A stretch of 33,630 nucleotides of DNA from a virus (lineage: Duplodnaviria; Heunggongvirae; Uroviricota; Caudoviricetes), in the IMG/VR virus record IMGVR_UViG_2541047937_000003, positions 1-33,630 of that record; one strand, written 5' to 3'. How positions within the stretch are numbered: position 1 is the first letter of the stretch; the number at the start of each line of letters is the position of its first letter. Made by a program: the position numbers and the translations under genes. Shown here piece by piece: positions 8,439 to 26,841 of this stretch. The notes under the pieces are model-generated. The model did not search any database and had not been told where the DNA came from. It was given only the letters and a program-made list of their open reading frames with translations.

Positions 8439-8793
8439 ACAGTTTAACAACACACTACCGTCGCTCGCAACTGATTGCGCTTCCTGTACCGGGTGGAAAA
8501 GCGAAGGTGGAGTATTGCTATGCAGTAAATGTACCAGGTGGCAGGGTAATTGTAACCCACAGCTTTGCAGAGTGGGCTGTGGGTGATTTTAACCGGCAAA
8601 AGGAGACAGTCCTTTGCGACAAGTTAACCGCTGGTTCAAAGATCACTACGGAGTACCCGTCAGAGTCATTCGTTGGGAGCCGGAAACACAACGGGTTATC
8701 TACCTCCGTGAAGGCTATGAGCATGAGTGCTTCAGCCCGCTCGAACAGTTTCGTCGTAAATTCAGGGAAATAGAGGTCGGTCATGAGCACTAA
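8435..8793 (+). pseudogene. hypothetical gene with apparent frame change: protein-like N-terminal part in one frame (8435..about 8610), protein-like C-terminal part in another (8614..8793)
   Basis: Track ORF 8435..8773 has a plausible first 59 aa then S/T-rich low-complexity tail; the other frame from TTG 8614 (AAGGAG-like RBS GGAGA at 8602..8606) gives [59 protein letters not shown] and ends overlapping the O-like start. Confidence 0.35.
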
Positions 8794-9724: not shown

Positions 9725-9726
9725 TC

Positions 9727-10129
9727 ATGAGTCTTTTGAATGAAGTTCAGAAATTCATTGAAGCCCATCCGGGGTGTACTTCCGGAGACATTGCGGATGC
9801 TTTTGCAGGTTACTCACGGCAGCGCGTTCTGCAGTCAGCAAGCAAGTTACGTCAGAGTGGGCGTGTGGCTCACCGTTGTGAAGGAGATACACGCAGACAT
9901 TTCCCACGCCTGCCGTTCAGTGAATGCAGCGGTAGAGCATCTTCGTGCACTGGAGAAAAAAGGCGTCATCACGATAAAGCGTGGCGTGGCCCGGGGGATA
10001 ACGCTTCATACCGCGGTGAAGGACGACGACAGCGAGGCGGTCGGGATTATCCGCGCACTGCTTGCCGGTGAGGAAAACGCCAGGCTGCGTGCAGCCCACT
10101 GGTTACATGAGAGAGGCCTGAAAGTATGA
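9727..10129 (+). pseudogene. LexA-N-terminal-type winged-helix DNA-binding gene, reading frame interrupted (+1 shift or ~97-nt insert between 9817 and 9913)
   Basis: One frame gives MSLLNEVQKFIEAHPGCTSGDIADAFAGYS (LexA helix 1-2 pattern), another gives RSVNAAVEHLRALEKKGVITIKRGVARGITLH (LexA recognition helix and wing). They are contiguous in LexA but 97 nt apart and out of frame here. The two track ORFs 9721..10071 and 9740..10129 each have an Arg-rich or odd half. Confidence 0.4.
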
Positions 10130-10515
10130 AGCTGATCTTGCCTTTCCCGCCCAGCGTGAACACGTACTGGCGACACCCCAACAAAGGGGCGTTTGCTGGT
10201 AAGAGTCTGATAAGCGCGGCGGGGCGAAAATTCCAGAGCGCGGCGTGCGCAGCAATAGTTGAGCAGTTACGTCGTCTGCCGAAACCAACGTCGGCACCTG
10301 CTTCAGTGGAGATCGTGTTGTTTCCTCCGGATAACCGGATCCGCGATCTGGACAACTATAACAAGGCGCTGTTTGACGCCCTGACCCACGCGGGTGTGTG
10401 GGAAGACGACAGTCAGGTGAAAAGAATGCTGGTGGAGTGGGGACCGGTTATCCCGGAAGGGAAGGTCGAGATCACTATCAGTAAGTACGAGAAAACGGCG
10501 GGTGCAGCCGCCTGA
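10126..10515 (+). CDS. rusA: RusA-family Holliday junction resolvase, 129 aa
   Basis: LPFPPSVNTYWRH N-terminus and DLDNYNKALFDALTHAGVWEDD acidic catalytic region typical of RusA; nin-region position. Confidence 0.8.
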   Translation: MKLILPFPPSVNTYWRHPNKGAFAGKSLISAAGRKFQSAACAAIVEQLRRLPKPTSAPASVEIVLFPPDNRIRDLDNYNKALFDALTHAGVWEDDSQVKRMLVEWGPVIPEGKVEITISKYEKTAGAAA

Positions 10516-10534
10516 TCAAGAGGAGAAACGAAGT

Positions 10535-10795
10535 ATGAATAATCTGATGGTCATTGATGGTATTGAAGTTCGTCGTGATACTTATGGGCGTTACAGCCTG
10601 AACGATCTGCACAGGGCTGCCGGTTCTCTGGATAAGCATAAGCCTGCATTCTGGCTCCGCAATGAGCAAACTGAACGTTTAATAAGCGAGTTGCAGATTT
10701 GCAACTCGGTCAATATAGAGCCAGTTAACGTTATTCGTGGCGGAAATAACCAGGGGACGTATGTCTGCAAAGAACTGGTGTACCGTGGCATTTGA
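10535..10795 (+). CDS. KilA-N domain protein, 86 aa
   Basis: MNNLMVIDGIEVRRDTYGRYSLNDLHRAAGS...KPAFWLRNEQTERLISEL matches the KilA-N/Bro-N pattern; start set at ATG with AGGAGA RBS. Confidence 0.55.
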   Translation: MNNLMVIDGIEVRRDTYGRYSLNDLHRAAGSLDKHKPAFWLRNEQTERLISELQICNSVNIEPVNVIRGGNNQGTYVCKELVYRGI

Positions 10796-10884
10796 AGAGA
10801 AGTATGGTTCCCAGCTGGAGCTGATATTTCGTTTTATCGATCGTGCGCTGGCAATAGGCGTACTGGCGTAAGTGGAGAACGAGC

Positions 10885-11637
10885 ATGAACCTTGAAGCCT
10901 TACCGAAATATTACTCCCCGAAATCTCCAAAACTGAGCGATGACGCACCGGCGACAGGCTCTGGTGGTTTAACGATTACGGATGTGATGGCTGCGCAGGG
11001 GATGGTGCAGTCGAAAGCACCGCTTGGGTTTGCCTTATTCCTGGCAAAAGTTGGTGTTCAGGATCCTCAGTTTGCGATTGAAGGTCTGCTCAATTACGCG
11101 ATGGCACTGGATAACCCGACATTGAATAAATTGAGTGAAGAAACCCGGCTACAGATCATTCCTTACCTTGTGAATTTTGCCTTTGCTGATTATTCCAGGT
11201 CTGCGGCAAGTAAGGCTCGCTGTGAGCATTGTGCTGGTACTGGATTTCATAATGTATTGCGCGAAGTGGTGAAACACTCCAGAAGCGGGGAGTCTGTTAT
11301 CAAGGAAGAGTGGGTGAAGGAACTATGTCAGCATTGTCATGGTAAGGGAGAAGTCAGCACAGCGTGCAGAGGGTGTAAGGGTAAAGGTATTGTCCTGGAT
11401 GAAAAAAGAACCCGGCTTCATGGTACGCCTGTTTATAAGATTTGTGGGCGTTGCAATGGAAAACGGTTTAGTCGTTTACCAACCACACTGGCGCGGCATC
11501 ATGTCCAGAAACTGGTACCAGACCTGACGGATTATCAGTGGTACAAAGGATATGCAGATGTCATTGATAAACTGGTTACAAAGTGCTGGCAGGAGGAATC
11601 TTACGCTGAAGCACAATTGAGAAAGGTGACAAGATAA
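10885..11637 (+). CDS. putative late-gene regulator in the Q (antiterminator) position; protein with four CxxCxGxG Zn-finger repeats, 250 aa
   Basis: CEHCAGTG, CQHCHGKG, CRGCKGKG, CGRCNGKR repeats; last early-right gene before the late terminator and lysis cassette. Q assignment is positional. Confidence 0.4.
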   Translation: MNLEALPKYYSPKSPKLSDDAPATGSGGLTITDVMAAQGMVQSKAPLGFALFLAKVGVQDPQFAIEGLLNYAMALDNPTLNKLSEETRLQIIPYLVNFAFADYSRSAASKARCEHCAGTGFHNVLREVVKHSRSGESVIKEEWVKELCQHCHGKGEVSTACRGCKGKGIVLDEKRTRLHGTPVYKICGRCNGKRFSRLPTTLARHHVQKLVPDLTDYQWYKGYADVIDKLVTKCWQEESYAEAQLRKVTR

Positions 11638-11744
11638 GTGATCTTCGCCGAAAATGGTGACATCATGCTTGCAATTTTCAAAAAAACATGGATAAGATTT
11701 TCTCAACGATGGGCTTTATGTATCTGCTGTTGATAACCTTCAAG

Positions 11745-11770
11745 AACTCGCCATTGAGCGGGTTTTTTAT
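11745..11770 (+). terminator. candidate late-leader terminator (tR'-like) downstream of the Q-like gene
   Basis: CTCGC-cattga-GCGGG hairpin (one G-U pair) followed by TTTTTTATT; a TATAAT hexamer follows at 11805..11810. Confidence 0.3.
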
Positions 11771-11840
11771 TGTGTAAAAACAGAATGACGGTATTAATTA
11801 GTAATATAATTATTCGACCATACAACTAGGGGTCGAAAAA

Positions 11841-12626
11841 ATGTATGTTTTTGAGTTAATCAAGCCAGGCAGTAATCTTAAGTTTGAAAACAGAGAGTTA
11901 GAATGGACGTTTAATAACTTATTATCCCATTTAGAAACTGCATTTTATGATGCTAATGTAGCATTAAATTTATTCGAACAGGAAAGAACTAAGAATAACA
12001 GTAAATTCGATAATATTTCTCAGACATGGCAAGCTGATGTACAGAAACGACAAGCACTGGAAATGCTGGTTCGTAAAGAGTTTGGTTATCAACCTTATGA
12101 ATATTCAGAACAGGTTTTTTCAGAGGTCGAGCTACGTCTAAAAAGAGAAAAATGGAATAACGGTGAATATCCGTTGGCTCATCAACACAGATTGATCTTC
12201 TTACATGCAAAATCATTTCTCTACGCTTTGGATGCTATTGATAAATTTTTAAAGGTAATTTCAAAAGAAAATGGCGCGCCAGAGAACATTAAAAAATTGC
12301 ATGAACAGCTTTCTAAAGACTTTCCGAATTTAAGAAAGGTAAGGAATTCAGCTCAACACATGGAAGACAGAGTTCGTGGGCTTGGTGCAGAGAAAGAACC
12401 AAAGCCAATAAAACTCAAACCTGTAAATAATATTCATGTTGTTGCACCTCAGGGGGCATTGATGTTGAATAACTTATTCGGAACTAAATTTGGGTGCACT
12501 ATGGCTGATGGCTATTATGGTGAAGTAGATATTTCGACAGAGTCTTTGGCAAAGTTGCAAAATTTAATCCAAAAAGTTTTTAATTCCTTCAGTTGGGAAG
12601 GACCAAAGCAACACCTTCCCCGATAA
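11841..12626 (+). CDS. AT-rich moron protein, 261 aa, unknown function; contains an R-x4-H motif (RNSAQH, aa 168-173): candidate abortive-infection/defence protein
   Basis: Complete ORF with AGGGG RBS; markedly AT-rich with atypical codon usage; sits between the Q-like gene and the holin; followed by a perfect bidirectional terminator. Confidence 0.6.
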   Translation: MYVFELIKPGSNLKFENRELEWTFNNLLSHLETAFYDANVALNLFEQERTKNNSKFDNISQTWQADVQKRQALEMLVRKEFGYQPYEYSEQVFSEVELRLKREKWNNGEYPLAHQHRLIFLHAKSFLYALDAIDKFLKVISKENGAPENIKKLHEQLSKDFPNLRKVRNSAQHMEDRVRGLGAEKEPKPIKLKPVNNIHVVAPQGALMLNNLFGTKFGCTMADGYYGEVDISTESLAKLQNLIQKVFNSFSWEGPKQHLPR

Positions 12627-12630
12627 CATT

Positions 12631-12675
12631 TTCTTTTTTATTGAAAGCCGCCAAATAATTGGCGGCTTTTTTATT
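12631..12675. terminator. bidirectional rho-independent terminator
   Basis: Perfect 11-bp stem AAAGCCGCCAA / TTGGCGGCTTT (12644..12654, 12659..12669), 4-nt loop, T tracts on both sides. Confidence 0.8.
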
Positions 12676-12715
12676 TCACAGTACCCGCAAATATCGCGAG
12701 GTGAGAGATGACGAA

Positions 12716-13042
12716 ATGCCTCATAACCCAAATACCTGGCTGGACTTGGTCCAGAGCTGGTGGCGTGGAGACACACCGCTGGGCGCAGTGATTATGTCGA
12801 TTGTTATGGCTGGCTTGCGCATTGCATATTTTGGCGGTGGTGGGGGCTGGAAACGAAAAACACTCGAGATTTTGCTCTGTGGTGCTCTGACGCTGACTTT
12901 TGCATCCGCTCTTGAGTATGTCGGATGGCCTAAATCTCTTTCTGTTGCCATTGGTGGTGGCGTTGGGTTGATCGGTGTCGATGCTATTCGTGGGGCTGCA
13001 ATGAGTGTAATCGGTAATAAGTTTGGTGGCTCTAAGGAGTAA
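12716..13042 (+). CDS. holin, 108 aa, three predicted TM segments
   Basis: Hydrophobic segments LGAVIMSIVMAGLRIAYF, TLEILLCGALTLTFASAL, LSVAIGGGVGLIGVDAI; immediately upstream of the endolysin; start set at ATG with GAGGTGAGAG RBS (track ORF starts at a TTG inside the terminator). Confidence 0.7.
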   Translation: MPHNPNTWLDLVQSWWRGDTPLGAVIMSIVMAGLRIAYFGGGGGWKRKTLEILLCGALTLTFASALEYVGWPKSLSVAIGGGVGLIGVDAIRGAAMSVIGNKFGGSKE

Positions 13043-13045
13043 TTT

Positions 13046-13522
13046 ATGCAGGTACTAAATTCCCAGCGTAAAGCTTTCCTTGATATGGTGGCTTGGTCAG
13101 AAGGAACGGATAACGGACGACAACCGACACGTAACCACGGTTATGACGTTATTGTCGGTGGTGAACTCTTCACTGATTACTCCGATCACCCTCGCAAACT
13201 TGTCACGCTAAACCCGAAACTCAAGTCAACAGCCGCCGGACGTTACCAGCTTCTTTCACGCTGGTGGGATGCTTACCGTAAACAGCTTGGCCTGAAAGAT
13301 TTTTCTCCAGAAAGCCAGGACGCTGTAGCTCTGCAGCAGATTAAAGAGCGTGGCGCTTTACCGATGATTGACCGCGGCAATATTCGTCAGGCAATCGACC
13401 GTTGCAGCAATATCTGGGCGTCGTTACCAGGTGCAGGTTACGGTCAGTATGAACATAAAATCGGCGACCTGATTGCCCGATTTAAAGAGGCTGGTGGGGT
13501 AGTAAATGAAGCTGAGATATAA
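13046..13522 (+). CDS. endolysin, lambda R-type lytic transglycosylase, 158 aa
   Basis: NSQRKAFLDMVAWSEGTDNGRQPTRNHGYDVIVGGELFTDYSDHPRKLVTLNPKLKST... is near-identical to lambda R as I recall it; same length. Confidence 0.92.
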   Translation: MQVLNSQRKAFLDMVAWSEGTDNGRQPTRNHGYDVIVGGELFTDYSDHPRKLVTLNPKLKSTAAGRYQLLSRWWDAYRKQLGLKDFSPESQDAVALQQIKERGALPMIDRGNIRQAIDRCSNIWASLPGAGYGQYEHKIGDLIARFKEAGGVVNEAEI

Positions 13523-13898
13523 GCTGGTTATTGTTGCCTTCTTTGTTACCGTCATTGGTTCCTTCATCTGGTCTGTCGGGCATTACTACAGCAAATATCA
13601 GCACGAAAAGGAGCGTGCTGATGAGGCTGTACGAAATGCTGAATCGGCAACTGCCATTACCAATAACGTCCTGCAATCAATACAAATCGTAAATACAGCA
13701 CTGGAGGCTAGCCAGCATGCAAAACAACAAATCGCACTGGAGTCACAGAGAACCCAGGAAGATATCAAAGTGGCTGTTGCGAATGATGATTGCGCTTCAC
13801 GTCCTGTGCCTGCTGCCGCTACTGACCGGTTGCGGAAGTACGCGGACAGTTTACGTGAGCACCCCAGTAGCACCACTGTCAACCACCCTAACTTCTGA
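13506..13898 (+). CDS. Rz-like i-spanin, 130 aa
   Basis: N-terminal TM anchor (LVIVAFFVTVIGSFIWSV) then helical region; start overlaps the endolysin stop; contains an Rz1-like ORF in the +1 frame. Confidence 0.6.
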   Translation: MKLRYKLVIVAFFVTVIGSFIWSVGHYYSKYQHEKERADEAVRNAESATAITNNVLQSIQIVNTALEASQHAKQQIALESQRTQEDIKVAVANDDCASRPVPAAATDRLRKYADSLREHPSSTTVNHPNF

Positions 13899-14031
13899 AA
13901 CACCGATTCCAATTATACCTAGTCCACTGACATATGGTGCTAGCCTAGACCTGAATGCAAGTTTGTTATCTGCATTAGGGCAGTGCAATAGAGATAAAAA
14001 GGCTATCCGCAGTATAAACAATGCTAGATGA
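13783..14031 (+). CDS. Rz1-like o-spanin lipoprotein
   Basis: +1 frame relative to Rz; signal peptide with lipobox LLTGC (MMIALHVLCLLPLLTGCGS), Pro-rich mature part; extends 133 nt beyond Rz. Start uncertain (13717 or 13783). Confidence 0.5.
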   Translation: MMIALHVLCLLPLLTGCGSTRTVYVSTPVAPLSTTLTSETPIPIIPSPLTYGASLDLNASLLSALGQCNRDKKAIRSINNAR

Positions 14032-14109
14032 AGATTTTAATTTAAATTGAAGATGCCTATTACTAGACATCTTTATAATTTATGCTCAAACCAAAGTGGA
14101 TTTGTAATA

Positions 14110-14484
14110 TTAAAGACTATTTAGGAGACTCTGAATAATAGGCCATAAAGTTAATGTGTTTGCACCAGCTGAGTAAAATCGCTCCATCAGTTGTAGAGGT
14201 GTTGATGACTGATTAAACTTGATATCATTTAAAATGTCGTATATTTCTTGTAGCTTCTCTGCACCAAGTTTATCGTTAATTTCACTTAAGTTATTTTGTA
14301 TGGCGATTTCTGCTTCTTTTATAAGCCGAACTGTTTCTGCTGAGTAATGAATATTGTTGGAAAGAAAAGTATTAGCTGAATCAATAATTTCATAACCAAC
14401 ATCAGCACCAAATGATTTGTTTCCAATTATTTTGATGTTTTCGCATCCCTCAATGCGATAAGCAACGGTTTTCTTTTCACTCAT
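14110..14484 (-). CDS. AT-rich reverse-strand moron protein, 124 aa, unknown function
   Basis: Complete ORF on the strand opposite to the late genes, between Rz1 and HNH (the position lambda bor occupies); strongly AT-rich; no signal peptide or TM segment seen. Confidence 0.55.
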   Translation of the reverse strand: MSEKKTVAYRIEGCENIKIIGNKSFGADVGYEIIDSANTFLSNNIHYSAETVRLIKEAEIAIQNNLSEINDKLGAEKLQEIYDILNDIKFNQSSTPLQLMERFYSAGANTLTLWPIIQSLLNSL

Positions 14485-14611
14485 GTTATAACCTGTGTTT
14501 AGTTACTTTTATTAGAACCTTGTTATCAGATTTTTCTCATAAAGGAAAGAGTGAAAGAGAAAAATGAATCTCTTTTGTCAAATATGTCTATCAGATTAAA
14601 GAGAGTATTTT

Positions 14612-14962
14612 ATGCCAGCACTGATACCTAGAGCCTGCCGTGTTCGCGGCTGCCACCATACCACTACTGACCCGTCAGGCTATTGTGAAAGCCATAAAAG
14701 CGAAGGCTGGAAGCAATACAAGCCAGGCCAGTCCCGTCATCAGCGCGGCTACGGTTCGAAGTGGGACAGTATCCGCGCGCGCGTCCTGAAGCGTGACAAA
14801 GGTTTATGTCAGTTATGTCTGCGTGCCGGTGTGGTGCGTGAAGCTAAAACCGTTGACCACATCATCCCTAAAGCGCATGGCGGCACCGATGCAGACAGTA
14901 ATCTGCAGAGCCTGTGCTGGCCGTGCCATAAGACGAAGACGGCCCGTGAACGGCTAAAGTGA
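14612..14962 (+). CDS. HNH endonuclease (terminase-associated), 116 aa
   Basis: CRVRGCHHTT...CQLCLRAG...VDHIIPKAHGGTDADSNLQSLCWPCH: HNH core with two CxxC pairs; immediately upstream of terS. Confidence 0.85.
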   Translation: MPALIPRACRVRGCHHTTTDPSGYCESHKSEGWKQYKPGQSRHQRGYGSKWDSIRARVLKRDKGLCQLCLRAGVVREAKTVDHIIPKAHGGTDADSNLQSLCWPCHKTKTARERLK

Positions 14963-14988
14963 TAATAATTCTCAACTGCCTGAGGGGA

Positions 14989-15048
14989 GGGGCGGGTCAA
15001 ATCCCTGTGGCCTGACGTCTTCCGGACTGCCCGCCCCATCGTTTTTTT
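14989..15048 (+). other. GC-rich inverted repeat between HNH and terS: candidate cos/packaging site or long-loop terminator
   Basis: GGGGCGGG (14989..14996) pairs with CCCGCCCC (15030..15037) across 33 nt, followed by TTTTTTT (15042..15048); in HK97-like phages cos lies between HNH and terS. Confidence 0.35.
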
Positions 15049-15087
15049 ATACCCGCGAAAAATGAAATTTAACCAGGAGTGCCGCAT

Positions 15088-15759
15088 ATGGCTGGAACGG
15101 CGGGGCGTTCCGGGCGTCGCCCCAAGCCAACGGCGCGCAAGGCGCTGGCCGGAAACCCCGGCAAGCGAGCCCTGAATAAAGATGAACCTGTTTTTACGCC
15201 CATCAAAGGTGTTGAGCCACCGGAGTGGTTCGCTGAAGAAGATCTCCCTCTCGCTACGATCATGTGGCAACTGACAACTAAAGAACTCTGCGGTCAGGGC
15301 CTGCTGTGCGTGACTGACCTCGCGGTGCTTGAGCGGTGGTGCGTGGCCTACGAGTTCTGGCGACGTGCCGTGAAAAATATTGCCAGACAGGGCAACACCA
15401 TCACCGGTGCAATGGGCGGTATGGTCAAAAATCCGGAGCTGACCGCCAAAAAAGAACAGGAGTCCGAGATGAGCAGTACGGGGGCAATGCTCGGACTCGA
15501 CCCCAGCAGCCGCCAGCGTCTGATTGGCCTGGCGGGGCAGAAGAAAGCCACTAAACCGCGCAGAAGGATAAGTTCGGCGCGGGTAAGAACGGTTTTACCC
15601 GTGGTAACCCCCAGACTGGCACACCTGCCACCGATCTGGATGATGACTACTTTGATATGTTGCAGGAAGAACTCTGCAGCGTGGTGGAGGCATCCGGTGC
15701 CAGCCTGGAGAAGGGGCGAAACGACCAGTTGCTTACCGCGCTTCGTGCTCTGCTGTTAA
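15088..15759 (+). CDS. terminase small subunit, P27 family; 3' end abnormal (authentic sequence ends near codon 153, about 15546, then read-through)
   Basis: [37 protein letters not shown]-terminus; AGGAG RBS; after ...LIGLAGQKK the frame continues as Arg/Cys/Trp-rich sequence while a tail-fibre frame opens at 15555. Confidence 0.7.
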
Positions 15760-16277
15760 GCCGCAAGAATCCGTTTGGTGATATCAAATCGGATGGCACG
15801 GTGAAAACGGCTCTCGAAAACCTTGGTTTGGGAGAAGCGGCAAAACGGAATGTGGGCAACGGGGAAAACCAAATCCCTGATATGTCTTTCTGGACGGTTA
15901 CTGGTGGCAATGGAAATTTTGTGATTCGTCAACCTGACGGGCTAATCATCCAGATGGTTACTGTAAGTATAAGCGGCCCAGTGGCGATGAATGGAATGAC
16001 TGATAATGCTTATGCCATCACAGGTTCTAATAAGTCTTATATTGCCACAGCCACATTGCCCTTTGTATTTCCTAATAAGGTGCTGGGCGTTATCCCTCTG
16101 GTATCAACAACAACCTATGGTGGTGTATCCAGTAATATTACAGGTTCATACGCGACGGCGGTTTGTTCTTTTGCCGCTGTCCGGGGGAATAATACGATTG
16201 TATTCAAAGTCGACAAACCACTGAATGCAGCCTTTCCTTCAGATACCAGCGTCTCAGCGTTAATCATTGGACGGTAA
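15657..16277 (+). CDS. tail-fibre protein C-terminal fragment, variant 1 (Stf-like), 206 aa
   Basis: First 60 aa ([24 protein letters not shown]...ENLGLGE) identical to the opposite-strand ORF 17297..17974, then a unique region; frame is open upstream to 15555 with no start codon, so this is a 3' remnant of a longer fibre gene. Confidence 0.7.
15811..15836. promoter_or_regulatory. 26-bp crossover site for a Gin/Hin/Pin-family serine invertase (left copy)
   Basis: CTCTCGAAAACC-TT-GGTTTGGGAGAA resembles hix/gix sites (two 12-bp AAACC-containing half-sites around a 2-bp core); lies exactly at the constant/variable boundary. Confidence 0.65.
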
Positions 16278-16279
16278 TA

Positions 16280-16723
16280 ATGAACTCAGTATTCTTTTCA
16301 CCCGGAAGTAAAAGTTTTTATCTACAAGAATTGTTTCCAGAATATGAGGATGCGGGAACGCTTCCAGATGATGTTATTGAAATTACCCGAGAAACATATG
16401 AGCAATTTCTTGGGCTGCATCCAGAAGGGAAAGAAATTGGCGCTGACAGTTCAGGACGGCCAGTATGGATTAATTCCCCACCCCCTTCAAAAGAGGATGA
16501 GGTGTTGACGGCTGAAATGAAAAAAATATCTTTGGTTTCAGAAGTCAATACCTACATCAATACCCATCAGTGGCCTGGCAAAGCTGCTATTGGTCGTCTG
16601 AAAGGTGACGAGCTGGAACAATATAATTTATGGCTGGATTATCTGGACGCACTGGAACTGGTTGATACCTCCAGTGCTCCAGATATTGAATGGCCTACGC
16701 CTCCGGCAGTTCAGGCCAGATGA
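16280..16723 (+). CDS. tail-fibre assembly protein (Tfa), variant 1, 147 aa
   Basis: Immediately downstream of Stf variant 1; C-terminal ...SAPDIEWPTPPAVQAR shares the SAPD-x-WP motif with the opposite-strand Tfa. Confidence 0.7.
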   Translation: MNSVFFSPGSKSFYLQELFPEYEDAGTLPDDVIEITRETYEQFLGLHPEGKEIGADSSGRPVWINSPPPSKEDEVLTAEMKKISLVSEVNTYINTHQWPGKAAIGRLKGDELEQYNLWLDYLDALELVDTSSAPDIEWPTPPAVQAR

Positions 16724-17297
16724 CATCCGGCGCGGTGCTGGTATCTGTTGCCGTCACCGTGTCAATGTAATCCAGCACAGCGTTAAGGCGGGTGATTTCT
16801 GCCTGCGTCAGCTTCCGCCCGGCCTGCAATTTCAGCTGAATCAGACTGATGGAAGCCATAGCAGCATCAATCAGCGACTGGCGCTGTGTTTCTGCCACGT
16901 CTACTGCGGCGCTATGCTGTGCCTCAGTATCGGTCACCCATTTCTCACCATCCCATTTATCGAATGGCGTTAACGGGGCGATAGTAGTTGTATTTTCAGG
17001 GTAATCACCCGGAGCTGTGATTTCTTTTGATTCTCCTGTTTCAGTGCTATATACCGTTTCACCGCGATGATCTGGCACATATTCCCATGAGTTAAAATCT
17101 GCAGAACGGCAAATTGCATAACCAGCTTTATATGAGCCAGGAGCATCTAAACAGGAACATGCCGGAATACCGACGCCAACCGCAAGATATTCAGTTGATG
17201 TGGAAATATATTCCCGCGTTTCACCATCATAATTATAAATGGTAATGTCTCCCGCTTTTATGGCAATGAGTTCGTTATTTAATACGGCTTTATTCAT
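16695..17297 (-). CDS. tail-fibre assembly protein (Tfa), variant 2, 200 aa
   Basis: C-terminal ...STAPDVIWPELPEA; 3' end overlaps the other tfa by 29 nt; start overlaps the stop of Stf variant 2. Resembles e14 TfaE from memory. Confidence 0.7.
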   Translation of the reverse strand: MNKAVLNNELIAIKAGDITIYNYDGETREYISTSTEYLAVGVGIPACSCLDAPGSYKAGYAICRSADFNSWEYVPDHRGETVYSTETGESKEITAPGDYPENTTTIAPLTPFDKWDGEKWVTDTEAQHSAAVDVAETQRQSLIDAAMASISLIQLKLQAGRKLTQAEITRLNAVLDYIDTVTATDTSTAPDVIWPELPEA

Positions 17298-17974
17298 CAG
17301 GCAGCCCTCACGATATAATTAAAGGCAATGTTACGAGGACGGTTTTCGTTTGCAGTTGGAACAATTCTTGAAGCATCAAGGCCAATCACTTTTGGGTAAA
17401 CACCGCCCTCGGACCTTTCTGTCACCATACTTCTGACTAAGGAGAAATAACTATTGTTCGTTGAGGGGTTCAAAGGCACTACTGCCCCCTTAAACGAGCC
17501 TACTGATTCCCATATTGAATAATTTTCGGTGTTTACAGTCTTGAACTCACCATAGATATTACGTATGGCATCGCCCTGAGCTGATAATATTGCCCTCCCC
17601 GTATCCATACCACGTCCGTCATCCCAGCCACGAATAAACTCACCACGTAAATCAGGCAATTTATTTGTCGGGTAAGCCTTTGCCAGTTCCGGGTATTCTT
17701 CAACAGAAAAAGCTGCTCCGTTGCATTTCAGCCAGCCTGTTGGCGGAGTGGCTGAGGGCCACGGAACAGGTACGCCAACAGGCAATGCTGAGCCTTCTCC
17801 TAAACCAAGGTTTTCGAGAGCCGTTTTCACCGTGCCATCCGATTTGATATCACCAAACGGATTCTTGCGGCTTAACAGCAGAGCACGAAGCGCGGTAAGC
17901 AACTGGTCGTTTCGCCCCTTCTCCAGGCTGGCACCGGATGCCTCCACCACGCTGCAGAGTTCTTCCTGCAACAT
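17297..17974 (-). CDS. tail-fibre protein C-terminal fragment, variant 2 (Stf-like), 225 aa
   Basis: Shares the first 60 aa with variant 1, then a different region ([29 protein letters not shown]...). Confidence 0.7.
17795..17820. promoter_or_regulatory. 26-bp invertase crossover site (right copy, inverted orientation)
   Basis: TTCTCCTAAACC-AA-GGTTTTCGAGAG is the reverse complement of the left site with one substitution (17801 T versus the complement of G 15830). Confidence 0.65.
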
Positions 17975-18543
17975 ATCAAAGTAGTCATCATCCAGATCGG
18001 TGGCAGGTGTGCCAGTCTGGGGGTTACCACGGGTAAAACCGTTCTTACCCGCGCCGAACTTATCCTTCTGCGCGGTTTAGTGGCTTTCTTCTGCCCCGCC
18101 AGGCCAATCAGACGCTGGCGGCTGCTGGGGTCGAGTCCGAGCATTGCCCCCGTACTGCTCATCTCGGACTCCTGTTCTTTTTTGGCGGTCAGCTCCGGAT
18201 TTTTGACCATACCGCCCATTGCACCGGTGATGGTGTTGCCCTGTCTGGCAATATTTTTCACGGCACGTCGCCAGAACTCGTAGGCCACGCACCACCGCTC
18301 AAGCACCGCGAGGTCAGTCACGCACAGCAGGCCCTGACCGCAGAGTTCTTTAGTTGTCAGTTGCCACATGATCGTAGCGAGAGGGAGATCTTCTTCAGCG
18401 AACCACTCCGGTGGCTCAACACCTTTGATGGGCGTAAAAACAGGTTCATCTTTATTCAGGGCTCGCTTGCCGGGGTTTCCGGCCAGCGCCTTGCGCGCCG
18501 TTGGCTTGGGGCGACGCCCGGAACGCCCCGCCGTTCCAGCCAT
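17872..18543 (-). CDS. terminase small subunit, P27 family (mirror copy of 15088..15759)
   Basis: Identical translation on opposite strand. Confidence 0.65.
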
Positions 18544-18582
18544 ATGCGGCACTCCTGGTTAAATTTCATTTTTCGCGGGTAT

Positions 18583-18642
18583 AAAAAAACGATGGGGCGG
18601 GCAGTCCGGAAGACGTCAGGCCACAGGGATTTGACCCGCCCC
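18583..18642 (-). other. GC-rich inverted repeat, candidate cos site or terminator (mirror copy of 14989..15048)
   Basis: Mirror copy. Confidence 0.3.
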
Positions 18643-18668
18643 TCCCCTCAGGCAGTTGAGAATTATTA

Positions 18669-19019
18669 TCACTTTAGCCGTTCACGGGCCGTCTTCGTCT
18701 TATGGCACGGCCAGCACAGGCTCTGCAGATTACTGTCTGCATCGGTGCCGCCATGCGCTTTAGGGATGATGTGGTCAACGGTTTTAGCTTCACGCACCAC
18801 ACCGGCACGCAGACATAACTGACATAAACCTTTGTCACGCTTCAGGACGCGCGCGCGGATACTGTCCCACTTCGAACCGTAGCCGCGCTGATGACGGGAC
18901 TGGCCTGGCTTGTATTGCTTCCAGCCTTCGCTTTTATGGCTTTCACAATAGCCTGACGGGTCAGTAGTGGTATGGTGGCAGCCGCGAACACGGCAGGCTC
19001 TAGGTATCAGTGCTGGCAT
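18669..19019 (-). CDS. HNH endonuclease (mirror copy of 14612..14962)
   Basis: Identical translation on opposite strand. Confidence 0.8.
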   Translation of the reverse strand: MPALIPRACRVRGCHHTTTDPSGYCESHKSEGWKQYKPGQSRHQRGYGSKWDSIRARVLKRDKGLCQLCLRAGVVREAKTVDHIIPKAHGGTDADSNLQSLCWPCHKTKTARERLK

Positions 19020-19146
19020 AAAATACTCTCTTTAATCTGATAGACATATTTGACAAAAGAGATTCATTTTTCTCTTTCACTCTTTCCTTTATGAGAAAAA
19101 TCTGATAACAAGGTTCTAATAAAAGTAACTAAACACAGGTTATAAC

Positions 19147-19521
19147 ATGAGTGAAAAGAAAACCGTTGCTTATCGCATTGAGGGATGCGAAAACATCAAA
19201 ATAATTGGAAACAAATCATTTGGTGCTGATGTTGGTTATGAAATTATTGATTCAGCTAATACTTTTCTTTCCAACAATATTCATTACTCAGCAGAAACAG
19301 TTCGGCTTATAAAAGAAGCAGAAATCGCCATACAAAATAACTTAAGTGAAATTAACGATAAACTTGGTGCAGAGAAGCTACAAGAAATATACGACATTTT
19401 AAATGATATCAAGTTTAATCAGTCATCAACACCTCTACAACTGATGGAGCGATTTTACTCAGCTGGTGCAAACACATTAACTTTATGGCCTATTATTCAG
19501 AGTCTCCTAAATAGTCTTTAA
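19147..19521 (+). CDS. AT-rich moron protein, 124 aa (mirror copy of 14110..14484)
   Basis: Identical translation on opposite strand. Confidence 0.5.
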   Translation: MSEKKTVAYRIEGCENIKIIGNKSFGADVGYEIIDSANTFLSNNIHYSAETVRLIKEAEIAIQNNLSEINDKLGAEKLQEIYDILNDIKFNQSSTPLQLMERFYSAGANTLTLWPIIQSLLNSL

Positions 19522-19599
19522 TATTACAAATCCACTTTGGTTTGAGCATAAATTATAAAGATGTCTAGTAATAGGCATCTTCAATTTAAATTAAAATCT

Positions 19600-19848
19600 T
19601 CATCTAGCATTGTTTATACTGCGGATAGCCTTTTTATCTCTATTGCACTGCCCTAATGCAGATAACAAACTTGCATTCAGGTCTAGGCTAGCACCATATG
19701 TCAGTGGACTAGGTATAATTGGAATCGGTGTTTCAGAAGTTAGGGTGGTTGACAGTGGTGCTACTGGGGTGCTCACGTAAACTGTCCGCGTACTTCCGCA
19801 ACCGGTCAGTAGCGGCAGCAGGCACAGGACGTGAAGCGCAATCATCAT
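19600..19848 (-). CDS. Rz1-like o-spanin (mirror copy of 13783..14031)
   Basis: Mirror copy. Confidence 0.45.
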   Translation of the reverse strand: MMIALHVLCLLPLLTGCGSTRTVYVSTPVAPLSTTLTSETPIPIIPSPLTYGASLDLNASLLSALGQCNRDKKAIRSINNAR

Positions 19849-20125
19849 TCGCAACAGCCACTTTGATATCTTCCTGGGTTCTCTGTGACTCCAGTGCGAT
19901 TTGTTGTTTTGCATGCTGGCTAGCCTCCAGTGCTGTATTTACGATTTGTATTGATTGCAGGACGTTATTGGTAATGGCAGTTGCCGATTCAGCATTTCGT
20001 ACAGCCTCATCAGCACGCTCCTTTTCGTGCTGATATTTGCTGTAGTAATGCCCGACAGACCAGATGAAGGAACCAATGACGGTAACAAAGAAGGCAACAA
20101 TAACCAGCTTATATCTCAGCTTCAT
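19733..20125 (-). CDS. Rz-like i-spanin (mirror copy of 13506..13898)
   Basis: Identical translation on opposite strand. Confidence 0.55.
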   Translation of the reverse strand: MKLRYKLVIVAFFVTVIGSFIWSVGHYYSKYQHEKERADEAVRNAESATAITNNVLQSIQIVNTALEASQHAKQQIALESQRTQEDIKVAVANDDCASRPVPAAATDRLRKYADSLREHPSSTTVNHPNF

Positions 20126-20585
20126 TTACTACCCCACCAGCCTCTTTAAATCGGGCAATCAGGTCGCCGATTTTATGTTCATACTGACCGTAACCTGCAC
20201 CTGGTAACGACGCCCAGATATTGCTGCAACGGTCGATTGCCTGACGAATATTGCCGCGGTCAATCATCGGTAAAGCGCCACGCTCTTTAATCTGCTGCAG
20301 AGCTACAGCGTCCTGGCTTTCTGGAGAAAAATCTTTCAGGCCAAGCTGTTTACGGTAAGCATCCCACCAGCGTGAAAGAAGCTGGTAACGTCCGGCGGCT
20401 GTTGACTTGAGTTTCGGGTTTAGCGTGACAAGTTTGCGAGGGTGATCGGAGTAATCAGTGAAGAGTTCACCACCGACAATAACGTCATAACCGTGGTTAC
20501 GTGTCGGTTGTCGTCCGTTATCCGTTCCTTCTGACCAAGCCACCATATCAAGGAAAGCTTTACGCTGGGAATTTAGTACCTGCAT
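20109..20585 (-). CDS. endolysin, lambda R-type (mirror copy of 13046..13522)
   Basis: Identical translation on opposite strand. Confidence 0.9.
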   Translation of the reverse strand: MQVLNSQRKAFLDMVAWSEGTDNGRQPTRNHGYDVIVGGELFTDYSDHPRKLVTLNPKLKSTAAGRYQLLSRWWDAYRKQLGLKDFSPESQDAVALQQIKERGALPMIDRGNIRQAIDRCSNIWASLPGAGYGQYEHKIGDLIARFKEAGGVVNEAEI

Positions 20586-20588
20586 AAA

Positions 20589-20915
20589 TTACTCCTTAGA
20601 GCCACCAAACTTATTACCGATTACACTCATTGCAGCCCCACGAATAGCATCGACACCGATCAACCCAACGCCACCACCAATGGCAACAGAAAGAGATTTA
20701 GGCCATCCGACATACTCAAGAGCGGATGCAAAAGTCAGCGTCAGAGCACCACAGAGCAAAATCTCGAGTGTTTTTCGTTTCCAGCCCCCACCACCGCCAA
20801 AATATGCAATGCGCAAGCCAGCCATAACAATCGACATAATCACTGCGCCCAGCGGTGTGTCTCCACGCCACCAGCTCTGGACCAAGTCCAGCCAGGTATT
20901 TGGGTTATGAGGCAT
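20589..20915 (-). CDS. holin (mirror copy of 12716..13042)
   Basis: Mirror copy. Confidence 0.65.
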   Translation of the reverse strand: MPHNPNTWLDLVQSWWRGDTPLGAVIMSIVMAGLRIAYFGGGGGWKRKTLEILLCGALTLTFASALEYVGWPKSLSVAIGGGVGLIGVDAIRGAAMSVIGNKFGGSKE

Positions 20916-20955
20916 TTCGTCATCTCTCACCTCGCGATATTTGCGGGTACTGTGA

Positions 20956-21000
20956 AATAAAAAAGCCGCCAATTATTTGGCGGCTTTCAATAAAAAAGAA
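20956..21000. terminator. bidirectional terminator (mirror copy of 12631..12675)
   Basis: Mirror copy. Confidence 0.75.
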
Positions 21001-21004
21001 AATG

Positions 21005-21790
21005 TTATCGGGGAAGGTGTTGCTTTGGTCCTTCCCAACTGAAGGAATTAAAAACTTTTTGGATTAAATTTTGCAACTTTGCCAAAGACTCTGTCGAAAT
21101 ATCTACTTCACCATAATAGCCATCAGCCATAGTGCACCCAAATTTAGTTCCGAATAAGTTATTCAACATCAATGCCCCCTGAGGTGCAACAACATGAATA
21201 TTATTTACAGGTTTGAGTTTTATTGGCTTTGGTTCTTTCTCTGCACCAAGCCCACGAACTCTGTCTTCCATGTGTTGAGCTGAATTCCTTACCTTTCTTA
21301 AATTCGGAAAGTCTTTAGAAAGCTGTTCATGCAATTTTTTAATGTTCTCTGGCGCGCCATTTTCTTTTGAAATTACCTTTAAAAATTTATCAATAGCATC
21401 CAAAGCGTAGAGAAATGATTTTGCATGTAAGAAGATCAATCTGTGTTGATGAGCCAACGGATATTCACCGTTATTCCATTTTTCTCTTTTTAGACGTAGC
21501 TCGACCTCTGAAAAAACCTGTTCTGAATATTCATAAGGTTGATAACCAAACTCTTTACGAACCAGCATTTCCAGTGCTTGTCGTTTCTGTACATCAGCTT
21601 GCCATGTCTGAGAAATATTATCGAATTTACTGTTATTCTTAGTTCTTTCCTGTTCGAATAAATTTAATGCTACATTAGCATCATAAAATGCAGTTTCTAA
21701 ATGGGATAATAAGTTATTAAACGTCCATTCTAACTCTCTGTTTTCAAACTTAAGATTACTGCCTGGCTTGATTAACTCAAAAACATACAT
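21005..21790 (-). CDS. AT-rich moron protein, 261 aa, R-x4-H motif (mirror copy of 11841..12626)
   Basis: Identical translation on opposite strand. Confidence 0.55.
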   Translation of the reverse strand: MYVFELIKPGSNLKFENRELEWTFNNLLSHLETAFYDANVALNLFEQERTKNNSKFDNISQTWQADVQKRQALEMLVRKEFGYQPYEYSEQVFSEVELRLKREKWNNGEYPLAHQHRLIFLHAKSFLYALDAIDKFLKVISKENGAPENIKKLHEQLSKDFPNLRKVRNSAQHMEDRVRGLGAEKEPKPIKLKPVNNIHVVAPQGALMLNNLFGTKFGCTMADGYYGEVDISTESLAKLQNLIQKVFNSFSWEGPKQHLPR

Positions 21791-21993
21791 TTTTTCGACC
21801 CCTAGTTGTATGGTCGAATAATTATATTACTAATTAATACCGTCATTCTGTTTTTACACAATAAAAAACCCGCTCAATGGCGAGTTCTTGAAGGTTATCA
21901 ACAGCAGATACATAAAGCCCATCGTTGAGAAAATCTTATCCATGTTTTTTTGAAAATTGCAAGCATGATGTCACCATTTTCGGCGAAGATCAC

Positions 21994-22746
21994 TTATCTT
22001 GTCACCTTTCTCAATTGTGCTTCAGCGTAAGATTCCTCCTGCCAGCACTTTGTAACCAGTTTATCAATGACATCTGCATATCCTTTGTACCACTGATAAT
22101 CCGTCAGGTCTGGTACCAGTTTCTGGACATGATGCCGCGCCAGTGTGGTTGGTAAACGACTAAACCGTTTTCCATTGCAACGCCCACAAATCTTATAAAC
22201 AGGCGTACCATGAAGCCGGGTTCTTTTTTCATCCAGGACAATACCTTTACCCTTACACCCTCTGCACGCTGTGCTGACTTCTCCCTTACCATGACAATGC
22301 TGACATAGTTCCTTCACCCACTCTTCCTTGATAACAGACTCCCCGCTTCTGGAGTGTTTCACCACTTCGCGCAATACATTATGAAATCCAGTACCAGCAC
22401 AATGCTCACAGCGAGCCTTACTTGCCGCAGACCTGGAATAATCAGCAAAGGCAAAATTCACAAGGTAAGGAATGATCTGTAGCCGGGTTTCTTCACTCAA
22501 TTTATTCAATGTCGGGTTATCCAGTGCCATCGCGTAATTGAGCAGACCTTCAATCGCAAACTGAGGATCCTGAACACCAACTTTTGCCAGGAATAAGGCA
22601 AACCCAAGCGGTGCTTTCGACTGCACCATCCCCTGCGCAGCCATCACATCCGTAATCGTTAAACCACCAGAGCCTGTCGCCGGTGCGTCATCGCTCAGTT
22701 TTGGAGATTTCGGGGAGTAATATTTCGGTAAGGCTTCAAGGTTCAT
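21994..22746 (-). CDS. Q-position Zn-finger protein (mirror copy of 10885..11637)
   Basis: Identical translation on opposite strand. Confidence 0.4.
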   Translation of the reverse strand: MNLEALPKYYSPKSPKLSDDAPATGSGGLTITDVMAAQGMVQSKAPLGFALFLAKVGVQDPQFAIEGLLNYAMALDNPTLNKLSEETRLQIIPYLVNFAFADYSRSAASKARCEHCAGTGFHNVLREVVKHSRSGESVIKEEWVKELCQHCHGKGEVSTACRGCKGKGIVLDEKRTRLHGTPVYKICGRCNGKRFSRLPTTLARHHVQKLVPDLTDYQWYKGYADVIDKLVTKCWQEESYAEAQLRKVTR

Positions 22747-22835
22747 GCTCGTTCTCCACTTACGCCAGTACGCCTATTGCCAGCGCACGATCGATAAAAC
22801 GAAATATCAGCTCCAGCTGGGAACCATACTTCTCT

Positions 22836-23096
22836 TCAAATGCCACGGTACACCAGTTCTTTGCAGACATACGTCCCCTGGTTATTTCCGCCACGAATAA
22901 CGTTAACTGGCTCTATATTGACCGAGTTGCAAATCTGCAACTCGCTTATTAAACGTTCAGTTTGCTCATTGCGGAGCCAGAATGCAGGCTTATGCTTATC
23001 CAGAGAACCGGCAGCCCTGTGCAGATCGTTCAGGCTGTAACGCCCATAAGTATCACGACGAACTTCAATACCATCAATGACCATCAGATTATTCAT
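22836..23096 (-). CDS. KilA-N domain protein (mirror copy of 10535..10795)
   Basis: Mirror copy. Confidence 0.5.
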   Translation of the reverse strand: MNNLMVIDGIEVRRDTYGRYSLNDLHRAAGSLDKHKPAFWLRNEQTERLISELQICNSVNIEPVNVIRGGNNQGTYVCKELVYRGI

Positions 23097-23115
23097 ACTT
23101 CGTTTCTCCTCTTGA

Positions 23116-23505
23116 TCAGGCGGCTGCACCCGCCGTTTTCTCGTACTTACTGATAGTGATCTCGACCTTCCCTTCCGGGATAACCGGTCCCCACTCCACC
23201 AGCATTCTTTTCACCTGACTGTCGTCTTCCCACACACCCGCGTGGGTCAGGGCGTCAAACAGCGCCTTGTTATAGTTGTCCAGATCGCGGATCCGGTTAT
23301 CCGGAGGAAACAACACGATCTCCACTGAAGCAGGTGCCGACGTTGGTTTCGGCAGACGACGTAACTGCTCAACTATTGCTGCGCACGCCGCGCTCTGGAA
23401 TTTTCGCCCCGCCGCGCTTATCAGACTCTTACCAGCAAACGCCCCTTTGTTGGGGTGTCGCCAGTACGTGTTCACGCTGGGCGGGAAAGGCAAGATCAGC
23501 TTCAT
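23116..23505 (-). CDS. rusA: RusA-family resolvase (mirror copy of 10126..10515)
   Basis: Identical translation on opposite strand. Confidence 0.75.
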   Translation of the reverse strand: MKLILPFPPSVNTYWRHPNKGAFAGKSLISAAGRKFQSAACAAIVEQLRRLPKPTSAPASVEIVLFPPDNRIRDLDNYNKALFDALTHAGVWEDDSQVKRMLVEWGPVIPEGKVEITISKYEKTAGAAA

Positions 23506-23904
23506 ACTTTCAGGCCTCTCTCATGTAACCAGTGGGCTGCACGCAGCCTGGCGTTTTCCTCACCGGCAAGCAGTGCGCGGATAATCCCGACCGCCTCGCT
23601 GTCGTCGTCCTTCACCGCGGTATGAAGCGTTATCCCCCGGGCCACGCCACGCTTTATCGTGATGACGCCTTTTTTCTCCAGTGCACGAAGATGCTCTACC
23701 GCTGCATTCACTGAACGGCAGGCGTGGGAAATGTCTGCGTGTATCTCCTTCACAACGGTGAGCCACACGCCCACTCTGACGTAACTTGCTTGCTGACTGC
23801 AGAACGCGCTGCCGTGAGTAACCTGCAAAAGCATCCGCAATGTCTCCGGAAGTACACCCCGGATGGGCTTCAATGAATTTCTGAACTTCATTCAAAAGAC
23901 TCAT
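23502..23904 (-). pseudogene. frame-interrupted LexA-type wHTH gene (mirror copy of 9727..10129)
   Basis: Mirror copy. Confidence 0.35.
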
Positions 23905-23906
23905 GA

Positions 23907-24848: not shown

Positions 24849-25196
24849 GACCGACCTCTATTTCCCTGAATTTACGACGAAACTGTTCGAGCGGGCTGAA
24901 GCACTCATGCTCATAGCCTTCACGGAGGTAGATAACCCGTTGTGTTTCCGGCTCCCAACGAATGACTCTGACGGGTACTCCGTAGTGATCTTTGAACCAG
25001 CGGTTAACTTGTCGCAAAGGACTGTCTCCTTTTGCCGGTTAAAATCACCCACAGCCCACTCTGCAAAGCTGTGGGTTACAATTACCCTGCCACCTGGTAC
25101 ATTTACTGCATAGCAATACTCCACCTTCGCTTTTCCACCCGGTACAGGAAGCGCAATCAGTTGCGAGCGACGGTAGTGTGTTGTTAAACTGTTCAT
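24838..25196 (-). pseudogene. frame-changed hypothetical gene (mirror copy of 8435..8793)
   Basis: Mirror copy. Confidence 0.3.
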
Positions 25197-26787: not shown

Positions 26788-26841
26788 CCTCAATATCCCA
26801 TCCATCGGCCACCGAAAGGTGGCTTTTTATTACCTATAAAT

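Follow-up and report, generated by a model that had tools for sequence, protein, structure and literature searches.

Gene content of the prophage relic and of its invertible segment

The window analysed here is a stretch of 33,630 nucleotides (record IMGVR_UViG_2541047937_000003) and corresponds to positions 47456-81085 of the NCBI scaffold KE702347.1. Its features are collected in Table 1. The left flank (L) is 99.8-100% identical, in three blocks, to the E. coli genome NZ_CM136167.1, whose annotation was used, and its best phage matches are SfIV, SfII and SfV. At the end of this flank a 16.2-kb deletion took the last 8 codons of terS and the first 7 codons of the constant part of a tail-fibre gene (Sc), fusing terS out of frame to the latter. 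The terS::stf junction lies at 15553-15558, with an exact microhomology AA. What remains of Sc is 96% identical to residues 8-106 of K-12 StfP; upstream its frame is closed by a TAA at 15552-15554, and no in-frame start precedes the ATG at 15657.

The terS::stf junction is also present in an independent read-level assembly (Logan SRR958741_222), which was reached only via an exact-protein look-up. Exact scans with a 44-mer of the junction gave 0 matches in each of the viral, genome-representative and metagenome contig collections, and the junction is in no complete E. coli genome. GF31 and MEI7BO1-21 carry different, independent terL'-stf deletions.

Table 1. Features of the window, with positions counted from its first nucleotide.
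Feature	Position	Strand	Description
Left flank L	1..15837	+	proA, thrW tRNA-Thr, tyrosine integrase, early, lysis and HNH genes; then truncated P27-family terS and tail-fibre constant part through crossover site
terS, P27-family terminase small-subunit gene	15088..15759	+	Pfam Terminase_4, TIGR01558
Sc, constant part of tail-fibre gene	15555..15822	+	~90 codons; without first 7 codons and start codon
pixL site	15811..15836	-	TTCTCCCAAACC-AA-GGTTTTCGAGAG on minus strand; central dinucleotide 15823-15824
Invertible segment as exchanged	15823..17808	.	central TT to central AA, 1,986 nt
Sv, variable C-terminus	15837..16277	+	weak Gp53-like_C match (Pfam)
Tail-fibre assembly gene cognate to Sv	16280..16723	+	147 aa, Caudo_TAP, 57% identical to TfaP
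tfaE-type assembly gene cognate to Sv'	16695..17297	-	200 aa, Caudo_TAP, 91% to K-12 TfaE
Sv', variable C-terminus	17297..17794	-	phage tail Collar domain (Pfam), 57% identical to StfE
Second pixL-type site	17795..17820	+	TTCTCCTAAACC-AA-GGTTTTCGAGAG; central dinucleotide 17807-17808
Mirror copy of L	17794..33630	-	reverse complement of L, 1 mismatch

The segment that follows Sc contains two alternative C-terminal exons for one constant 5' part, each followed by its cognate assembly gene, in convergent arrangement. A preliminary description of the locus had proposed two alternative fibre C-termini and two assembly genes; all these ORFs were recovered at the same coordinates, and the 29-nt overlap of the convergent tfa genes at 16695..16723 was found again in the ORF table. 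The families of the variable domains and of the Tfa proteins, which that description had left to profile searches, are given by Pfam: Caudo_TAP for both assembly proteins, Collar for Sv' and, weakly, Gp53-like_C for Sv. NCBIfam gave no match for the four segment proteins.

The prophage in the source strain is a relic, with 16.2 kb of virion genes deleted and a fibre gene devoid of a start codon. Flipping of the segment therefore no longer serves host-range switching. The stf-tfa-pin module outlasts independent losses of virion genes in the present prophage, in GF31, in MEI7BO1-21 and in e14. It might be kept for a host function, e.g. a block of phage adsorption of the StfE2 type.

Crossover sites and extent of the inverted repeat

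The two 26-bp sites bounding the segment have dyad half-sites and a 2-bp core; they are inverted copies with one difference, and shuffled sequence gave 0 such matches. As originally described, the single substitution falls in the inner (segment-side) half-site, with G at 15830 versus 17801 (A on the complement). Comparison with the pix sequences, taken from the table in PMC3241671 and read off the K-12 genome, bears out the family of the former “hix/gix-like” assignment and provides a better match: the left site is identical to pixL of prophage e14 (26/26) and the right site matches it at 25/26. Both sites thus carry the fibre-side (pixL-type) outer half-site, in place of the one pixL and one pixR expected to bound such a segment. 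The pixR site, given as TTTTCATAAACG-TT in a pinE-side context TTTTCATAAACG-TT-GGTTT, was not found in the window at up to 3 mismatches.

The right site is composed of the fibre-side outer half-site and of the inner half-site from the far segment end, i.e. it is the junction of a flipped isomer. It is the same as the fibre-side site (at 34381) of the flipped complete genome L003. In this flank-to-Sv' junction, AAACCAAGGTTTTCGAGAG is the site stretch between the end of Sv' and the constant region.

The repetition extends far beyond the sites. Positions 1..15837 are the reverse complement of 17794..33630 with 1 mismatch, and the arms are exact over 15,829 nt inward from both window ends. The inverted repeat is therefore 15,837 nt long and not 26 bp, an extent that the preliminary description missed. 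Only 1,956 nt of the window are unique, and its ORF table is mirror-symmetric. On the scaffold, the centre of the palindrome (64270.5) is the midpoint of the 128,540 nt of KE702347.1; extended by these coordinates beyond the window, the symmetry would give arms of 63,292 nt.

Whole-contig palindromes are a known error of short-read assembly (PMC9455707). Two features of such hairpins are found here: the arms are exact reverse complements up to both window ends, and the turn-around point is an invertible segment, i.e. a graph ambiguity that permits a strand switch. We interpret 17794..33630 as the assembly-graph node L traversed a second time, filling the place of pixR, pinE and the right flank.

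Invertase gene and orientations of the segment

No serine recombinase is encoded in the window, as had been noted from the start; tblastn with PinE returned only a 21-aa chance match (E=2.7). In relatives, by contrast, a serine invertase gene, with Resolvase and HTH_7 domains, lies just outside one end of the segment: pinE starts ~30 bp beyond it in three of the genomes compared (L001, L003 and L005) and in K-12, while L009 has a truncated Resolvase-domain gene (153 aa) in the pinE position and strain GF31 a frameshifted recombinase beside such a segment. The PinE homology search returned only representatives of 90% clusters, none of them identical. The window is without pinE because the pin-side flank is replaced by the mirror copy of the fibre-side flank, and the absence of the invertase is almost certainly an assembly artefact. 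We infer that pinE and pixR are present in the source isolate, and we attribute the missing pixR to the hairpin scaffold rather than to the locus.

The palindrome also accounts for a second claim. A constant region of 60 aa had been assigned to both fibre variants; it is present, yet its occurrence in both is a consequence of the palindrome, and its length had been counted from the ATG at 15657 when the constant part really has ~90 codons. Neither this sharing nor the lack of an invertase is a property of the switch.

The prophage and its segment, the latter with 1 mismatch over 1,986 nt, are shared with the complete E. coli genomes NZ_CM176579.1 and NZ_CM136167.1, which hold the segment inverted relative to one another. 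In both, the constant fibre part adjoins one segment end, and pixR with pinE the other; pixL and pixR are both present. The sequence common to their pixL and pixR is only TTGGTTT[G/A]GGAGAA; those of e14 have 16 nt exactly in common (PMC12529663). Between the inversion isomers L001 and L003, the G/A base of the inner half-site moves with the segment.

The left junction of the window is the fibre-side junction of NZ_CM176579.1 and the right one that of NZ_CM136167.1. The flank-to-Sv and flank-to-Sv' junctions are both in the window, which speaks for a segment that inverted in the sequenced culture and against a frozen one. The P segment of e14 occurs in both orientations within ordinary cultures (PMC4272514), with ~30% inverted (PMC12529663).

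Read-level assemblies break exactly where a flipping segment would lead one to expect. Among the Logan contigs, which are independent k=31 assemblies, SRR786316_431 is identical to exactly 15823-17808, the same contig being found in 3 samples, and ERR15404780_471 covers 15823-17808 with 11 mismatches. The read-level breaks thus lie at 15822/15823 and 17808/17809, and the NCBI draft contig L011 has a break in common, to the base, with the Logan segment contigs. Since SRR786316_431 ends core-to-core, the segment must adjoin two different sequences at either end. As this contig is equally identical to the segments of L009 and L011, it cannot be assigned to the source isolate. The end of the flank contig SRR958741_222, at 15829, was rejected as proof of mixed orientations because a true palindrome predicts the same break. 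Of the contigs, only the core-to-core one of 1,986 nt discriminates between mixed orientations and a true palindrome. That both orientations exist, a point which the preliminary description had left to be checked, is therefore supported by the isomers in complete genomes, by the two junctions in the window and by the contig breaks at the core dinucleotide.

Origin of the palindrome and comparison with known switches

We consider it very probable that an ordinary e14-type P segment lies here in a hairpin-misassembled KE702347.1, and that the artefact records a flipping switch. The segment is a 1,986-bp cassette of two alternative fibre C-termini, each with its assembly chaperone gene, that the serine invertase Pin would flip through exchange at pixL and pixR. 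As with Hin and Gin, Pin dimers at the two 26-bp sites would synapse on a Fis-bound enhancer; Pin would then make cuts staggered by 2 bp at the central AA/TT, rotate by 180 degrees and religate, after which the constant 5' part would continue into either Sv+tfa or Sv'+tfaE. The recombinational enhancer of Hin is Fis-dependent and lies within the invertase gene, at ~100 bp from hixL (PMC3798978). The 5' part of pin, where the enhancer would lie, is missing from the window, and a Fis/enhancer mechanism would apply to the present locus by this same analogy.

On the real chromosome, pixR and pinE would follow ~30 bp beyond the far segment end, and the arms of the palindrome would be single-copy in the source strain. 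A culture with both orientations would give the graph edges L to G(+) and L to G(-), where G is the segment. The reverse complement of the L to G(-) edge is G(+) to L(-), and the assembler would have walked L, G, L-reversed. Such a walk is valid in the graph only if the reads hold both orientations. No assembler word is as short as the overlap of pixL and pixR; reads must therefore contain the flank-to-Sv' junction, which does not result from repeat collapse.

The preliminary description read the locus differently, as a segment with no invertase beside it, frozen or else dependent in trans on a Pin-family enzyme from another part of the genome; this now appears very unlikely. It agrees with a window that encodes no recombinase, with the inversion of the e14 segment in trans demonstrated for PinQ of prophage Qin (PMC12529663), and with the decayed pin genes that occur beside such segments, e.g. 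in GF31. However, the mirror duplication that fills the pin position accounts for the absence, pinE adjoins the segment in the closest genomes, and one molecule with two pixL outer half-sites cannot be produced by pixL/pixR inversion. That both junctions are present speaks against a frozen switch. Other Pin proteins may contribute to inversion in trans, but the window can be explained without them.

Equally hard to retain is a real palindrome, i.e. a chromosomal inverted duplication of at least 63 kb on either side of the segment (at least 126 kb overall). It would originate from a Pin exchange pixL x pixR between sister chromosomes, giving L-G-L' and R'-G-R, or from a fold-back replication error at the segment. 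Two pixL-type outer half-sites and no pixR are the exact product of an intermolecular pixL x pixR exchange, and the symmetric scaffold and the flank contig end at 15829 are also compatible with it. However, looping of the invertasome on one molecule strongly disfavours intermolecular exchange by Fis/enhancer-dependent invertases. These enzymes work on such a single looped DNA molecule, in a topologically defined invertasome (PMC3798978). Moreover, the product would be a head-to-head chromosome dimer, and the palindrome is absent from both complete genomes with a 99.9% identical segment, which both read L-G-pinE. A graph artefact, on the other hand, requires nothing past the known flipping of such segments. 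If true, the palindrome would be a natural case of a DNA invertase making a large chromosomal palindrome with its turn-around at the cassette.

Slightly less likely still is a plain repeat-collapse misjoin, in which only one orientation would exist in the culture and the assembler would have switched strands at the inverted 26-bp sites. In its favour are the clear palindrome of the scaffold and the fact that inverted repeats are a classic cause of misjoins. We rejected this path because no more than ~16 nt, interrupted by a mismatch in the present lineage, are common to the natural pixL and pixR sites, far under assembler word sizes, and because the right junction is base-for-base the recombinant junction of the flipped genome, with the fibre-side outer half-site beside the end of Sv'.

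An e14-type P segment in a misassembled scaffold has little biological weight. The switch is already known: the case adds an allele to the e14-type Pin/P-segment switches, here within a decayed SfV-like prophage, and its value is mainly practical. The public draft scaffold KE702347.1 (128.5 kb, GCA_000461235.1) looks like a hairpin misassembly, with the annotation repeating ~63 kb of genes, among them proA and the prophage. In a draft showing an invertible segment and no invertase, contig-wide reverse-complement symmetry should be checked first. Hairpins and breaks at the core dinucleotide are usable as a free read-out of flipping in culture and of the position of exchange.

Like the hairpin misassemblies of short-read drafts, the scaffold has a reverse-complement duplicate around a short unique loop, with genes annotated twice. 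It differs from the usual ones in its loop, which is not arbitrary but exactly a site-specific inversion cassette; this allows the cause to be named as two orientations among the reads and makes the artefact biologically informative.

Among known switches the closest is the P segment/PinE system of e14, the cryptic prophage of E. coli K-12 (stfP-tfaP / tfaE-stfE-pinE). Besides the identical pixL, the closest complete genomes have an identical pixR and a PinE identical to that of K-12 at 181/185 aligned positions (stop codon counted). The gene order and the 29-nt overlap of the convergent tfa genes are the same, the constant region is 96% and TfaE 91% identical, and the host prophage is in both cases a deletion relic. 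Differences nevertheless appear. Between central dinucleotides the segment has 1,986 nt here versus 1,829 nt in e14 (1,797 bp as published). The C-terminus of StfP and Sv are unrelated, while identity is 57% both between Sv' and StfE and between the second Tfa and TfaP. The present prophage lies at thrW/proA with an SfV/SfIV-like backbone, and its fibre gene lost its start through the terS::stf deletion.

The Din-family, Fis/enhancer-dependent systems, i.e. the G segment of Mu with Gin, the C segment of P1 with Cin and the H segment of Salmonella with Hin, also exchange at the central dinucleotide. Mu and P1 share with the present segment alternative tail-fibre C-termini with cognate chaperones, whereas Hin controls a promoter and not a coding fusion. 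The site sequences are different, the window site matching hixL at 20/26 and gix at 18/26, with AA as central dinucleotide here versus GA in gix.

Crossover sites and cassette anatomy

The preliminary description had reported two alternative fibre C-termini and two assembly genes between inverted 26-bp sites resembling Hin/Gin/Pin crossover sites, with one substitution in the inner half-site and no invertase gene in the window. All of these observations were recovered. The site CTCTCGAAAACC-TT-GGTTTGGGAGAA and its inverted copy differ solely at 15830 vs 17801, in the segment-side half-site, and both match pixL, one of the two Pin recombination sites of e14 in E. coli K-12; pixR, the other, was not found in the window allowing up to 3 mismatches. 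The four genes are borne out by ORFs and Pfam, the middle two overlapping by 29 nt. With a PinE protein as query, tblastn finds no recombinase in the window.

Features of the invertible cassette and of the adjacent fusion ORF
Feature	Position	Strand	Match or size
terS::stf out-of-frame fusion ORF	15088-15759		223 aa
Left 26-bp site	15811..15836		pixL, 26/26
Sv, fibre end	15837..16277	+	weak Gp53-like_C (Pfam)
tfa, tail-fibre assembly	16280..16723	+	Caudo_TAP (Pfam)
tfaE, tail-fibre assembly	16695..17297	-	Caudo_TAP (Pfam)
Sv', fibre end	17297..17794	-	phage tail collar domain (Pfam)
Right 26-bp site, inverted	17795..17820		pixL, 25/26

The same locus in complete genomes

Among complete E. coli genomes, megablast finds the same prophage at thrW/proA, with the same segment, in NZ_CM176579.1 and NZ_CM136167.1 (99.9% identity across the matches; 1 mismatch in the 1,986-nt segment). 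The annotated order in both chromosomes is baseplate genes, ymfQ, tail fibre (constant plus variable), tfa, tfaE (reverse), fibre end (reverse), pinE and KAP NTPase. A copy of the segment one base different is thereby already annotated with pinE, and its orientation is opposite between the two chromosomes. Both carry CTCTCGAAAACC-TT-GGTTT[G or A]GGAGAA towards the fibre gene and TTCTCC[T or C]AAACC-AA-CGTTTATGAAAA towards pin. K-12 e14 carries the same sites, which are pixL and pixR in a published Din-site table (PMC3241671).

When the segment is flipped, the G/A base goes with it and the outer half-sites keep their places; as read from these sequences, such movement is the signature of an exchange at the central dinucleotide or close to it. 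The exchange interval, 15823-15829 with the core TT inside, is demonstrated here along with the sites, the cassette anatomy and the isomers. In the Hin and Gin systems, invertase dimers act on two 26-bp sites with a Fis-bound enhancer near one of them, cutting each site in its centre with a 2-bp stagger before a 180-degree subunit rotation (PMC3798978, PMC4817059). PinE, probably encoded beside the segment in the isolate as in its relatives, would flip it; other Pin paralogues, e.g. PinQ, could add inversion in trans.

On its left the window has the junction found on the fibre side of one isomer; its right junction, on the other strand, is that of the second. In the complete genomes the flank on the pin side contributes a short 5' end of its own with a start codon, and the annotation therefore also lists the pin-facing variable end as an ORF, 163 or 182 aa long (L002 5969-6460; L001 7745-8293). 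Their analogues are e14 stfE and the chimeric StfE2 (PMC12529663); the second, pin-side start codon is absent from the window.

A palindromic window and its probable origin

A repeat search extends the inverted repeat beyond 26 bp, up to the edge of the searched region. Compared base by base, 1..15837 and 17794..33630 are reverse complements of each other apart from one mismatch, the arms being exact for 15,829 nt inward from either window end. This leaves 15838..17793 (1,956 nt) as the one unique stretch, and the ORFs on either side of it mirror each other. The 60-aa constant region shared by both fibre variants and the missing invertase both result from this palindromic symmetry. An exact-protein look-up of the terS fusion ORF places the window at 47456-81085 of scaffold KE702347.1 (128,540 nt, assembly GCA_000461235.1). 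The palindrome centre, 64270.5, is the exact scaffold midpoint; therefore the entire scaffold is presumably arm, loop and arm (63,292 + 1,956 + 63,292 nt), as taken outside the window from coordinates alone. KE702347.1 appears to be a 128.5-kb hairpin in the public record, in which ~63 kb of genes (proA, thrW, prophage) would carry double annotation.

The seemingly invertase-less switch is, very probably, best explained as an assembly artefact. With L the fibre-side flank, G the segment (G+ and G- its orientations) and R the pin-side flank, reads of one isomer would contribute two graph edges, L to G+ and G+ to R, and those of the flipped isomer two more, L to G- and G- to R. Taken on the opposite strand, the edge L to G- reads G+ to L-, so that the walk L+, G+, L- would be valid once the reads contain both isomers. 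In ordinary cultures the e14 segment is documented in its two orientations side by side (PMC4272514), with ~30% inverted in wild type (PMC12529663), and whole-contig palindromes are a reported short-read assembly error (PMC9455707).

In independent assemblies (Logan contigs, k=31) the breaks fall where the two-isomer graph model predicts. Contig SRR958741_222 is identical to 11358-15829, its end being the last base preceding the G/A difference. SRR786316_431, which matches the segment of other strains just as exactly and is not tied to the source isolate, is identical to 15823-17808, from central TT to central AA. Such an interval would be predicted only where both ends of G have two different neighbours, diverging at the base beside the core; the draft NCBI contig of another strain (L011) breaks at that base too. 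A physical palindrome in the chromosome would equally give the flank-contig break at 15829, but alone it predicts 15800-17831 rather than the interval of SRR786316_431; we consider it highly improbable. The same very low probability applies to a true orphan switch, driven in trans or frozen as initially proposed, since the mirror arm accounts for the missing invertase. A repeat-collapse misjoin without flipping is just as improbable: pixL and pixR have only TTGGTTT[G/A]GGAGAA in common (exactly 16 nt in e14; PMC12529663), which is shorter than any assembler word and so rules out simple repeat collapse.

Prophage state and comparison with e14

Relative to NZ_CM136167.1 the window is without 412 bp, 1,456 bp and 16.2 kb. 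The largest deletion takes the last 8 codons of the P27-family terS and reaches to codon 8 of the fibre gene (codons 1-7 lost), removing terL, portal, capsid, tail, baseplate and ymfQ. No head, tail or baseplate gene is left. Its junction (15553-15558), GCCACTAA followed by ACCGCGCAG, shows an exact microhomology of just 2 nt (AA) and joins terS out of frame to the fibre gene, whose frame is closed by a TAA immediately upstream; the earliest start codon left in frame is the ATG at 15657. As this junction is also present in an independent Logan assembly (SRR958741), the 16.2-kb deletion is real. As regards virion host range the switch is a relic, like e14.

The smaller losses, with deletion points at 9912/9913 and 10781/10782 relative to the 99.9% identical NZ_CM136167.1 prophage, correspond to the PerC-family yfdN region (412 bp) and to most of the KilA-N and DUF968 genes (1,456 bp), which survive as 86-aa and 36-aa remnants. 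A 1-bp indel lies somewhere within 10781-15558. Against NZ_CM136167.1, 19 substitutions fall in the first 9.9 kb, and 14 of them cluster in ~500 nt of proA (630-1137), which suggests a short recombination tract in this core gene beside the prophage attachment site.

In GCA_015229715.1 (JAAAGQ010000445.1 4620-5452), the 833 nt separating KAP NTPase from pixR, the expected place of pin, hold no called gene; a Resolvase ORF is truncated to 153 aa in L009, and GF31 (NZ_CP172152.1) has a frameshifted recombinase pseudogene. Certain lineages may have a truly decayed pin beside an intact segment.

GF31 (L004 5140-7963) and NZ_CM149560.1 (L005 5140-8241) have independent deletions with other breakpoints, in which a terminase remnant almost abuts stf-tfa-pin, and e14 has a comparable deletion history. 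The invertible module is kept repeatedly while virion genes disappear, which may fit the host-beneficial phage-defence role proposed for the e14 segment (PMC12529663).

By sequence comparison the locus belongs with the e14 Pin/P segment and carries other fibre-tip alleles. The constant fibre region is 96% identical to e14 StfP and TfaE 91% identical to that of K-12. The other Tfa and Sv' are each 57% identical to their e14 counterparts (TfaP and StfE respectively); Sv and the C-terminus of e14 StfP are unrelated.
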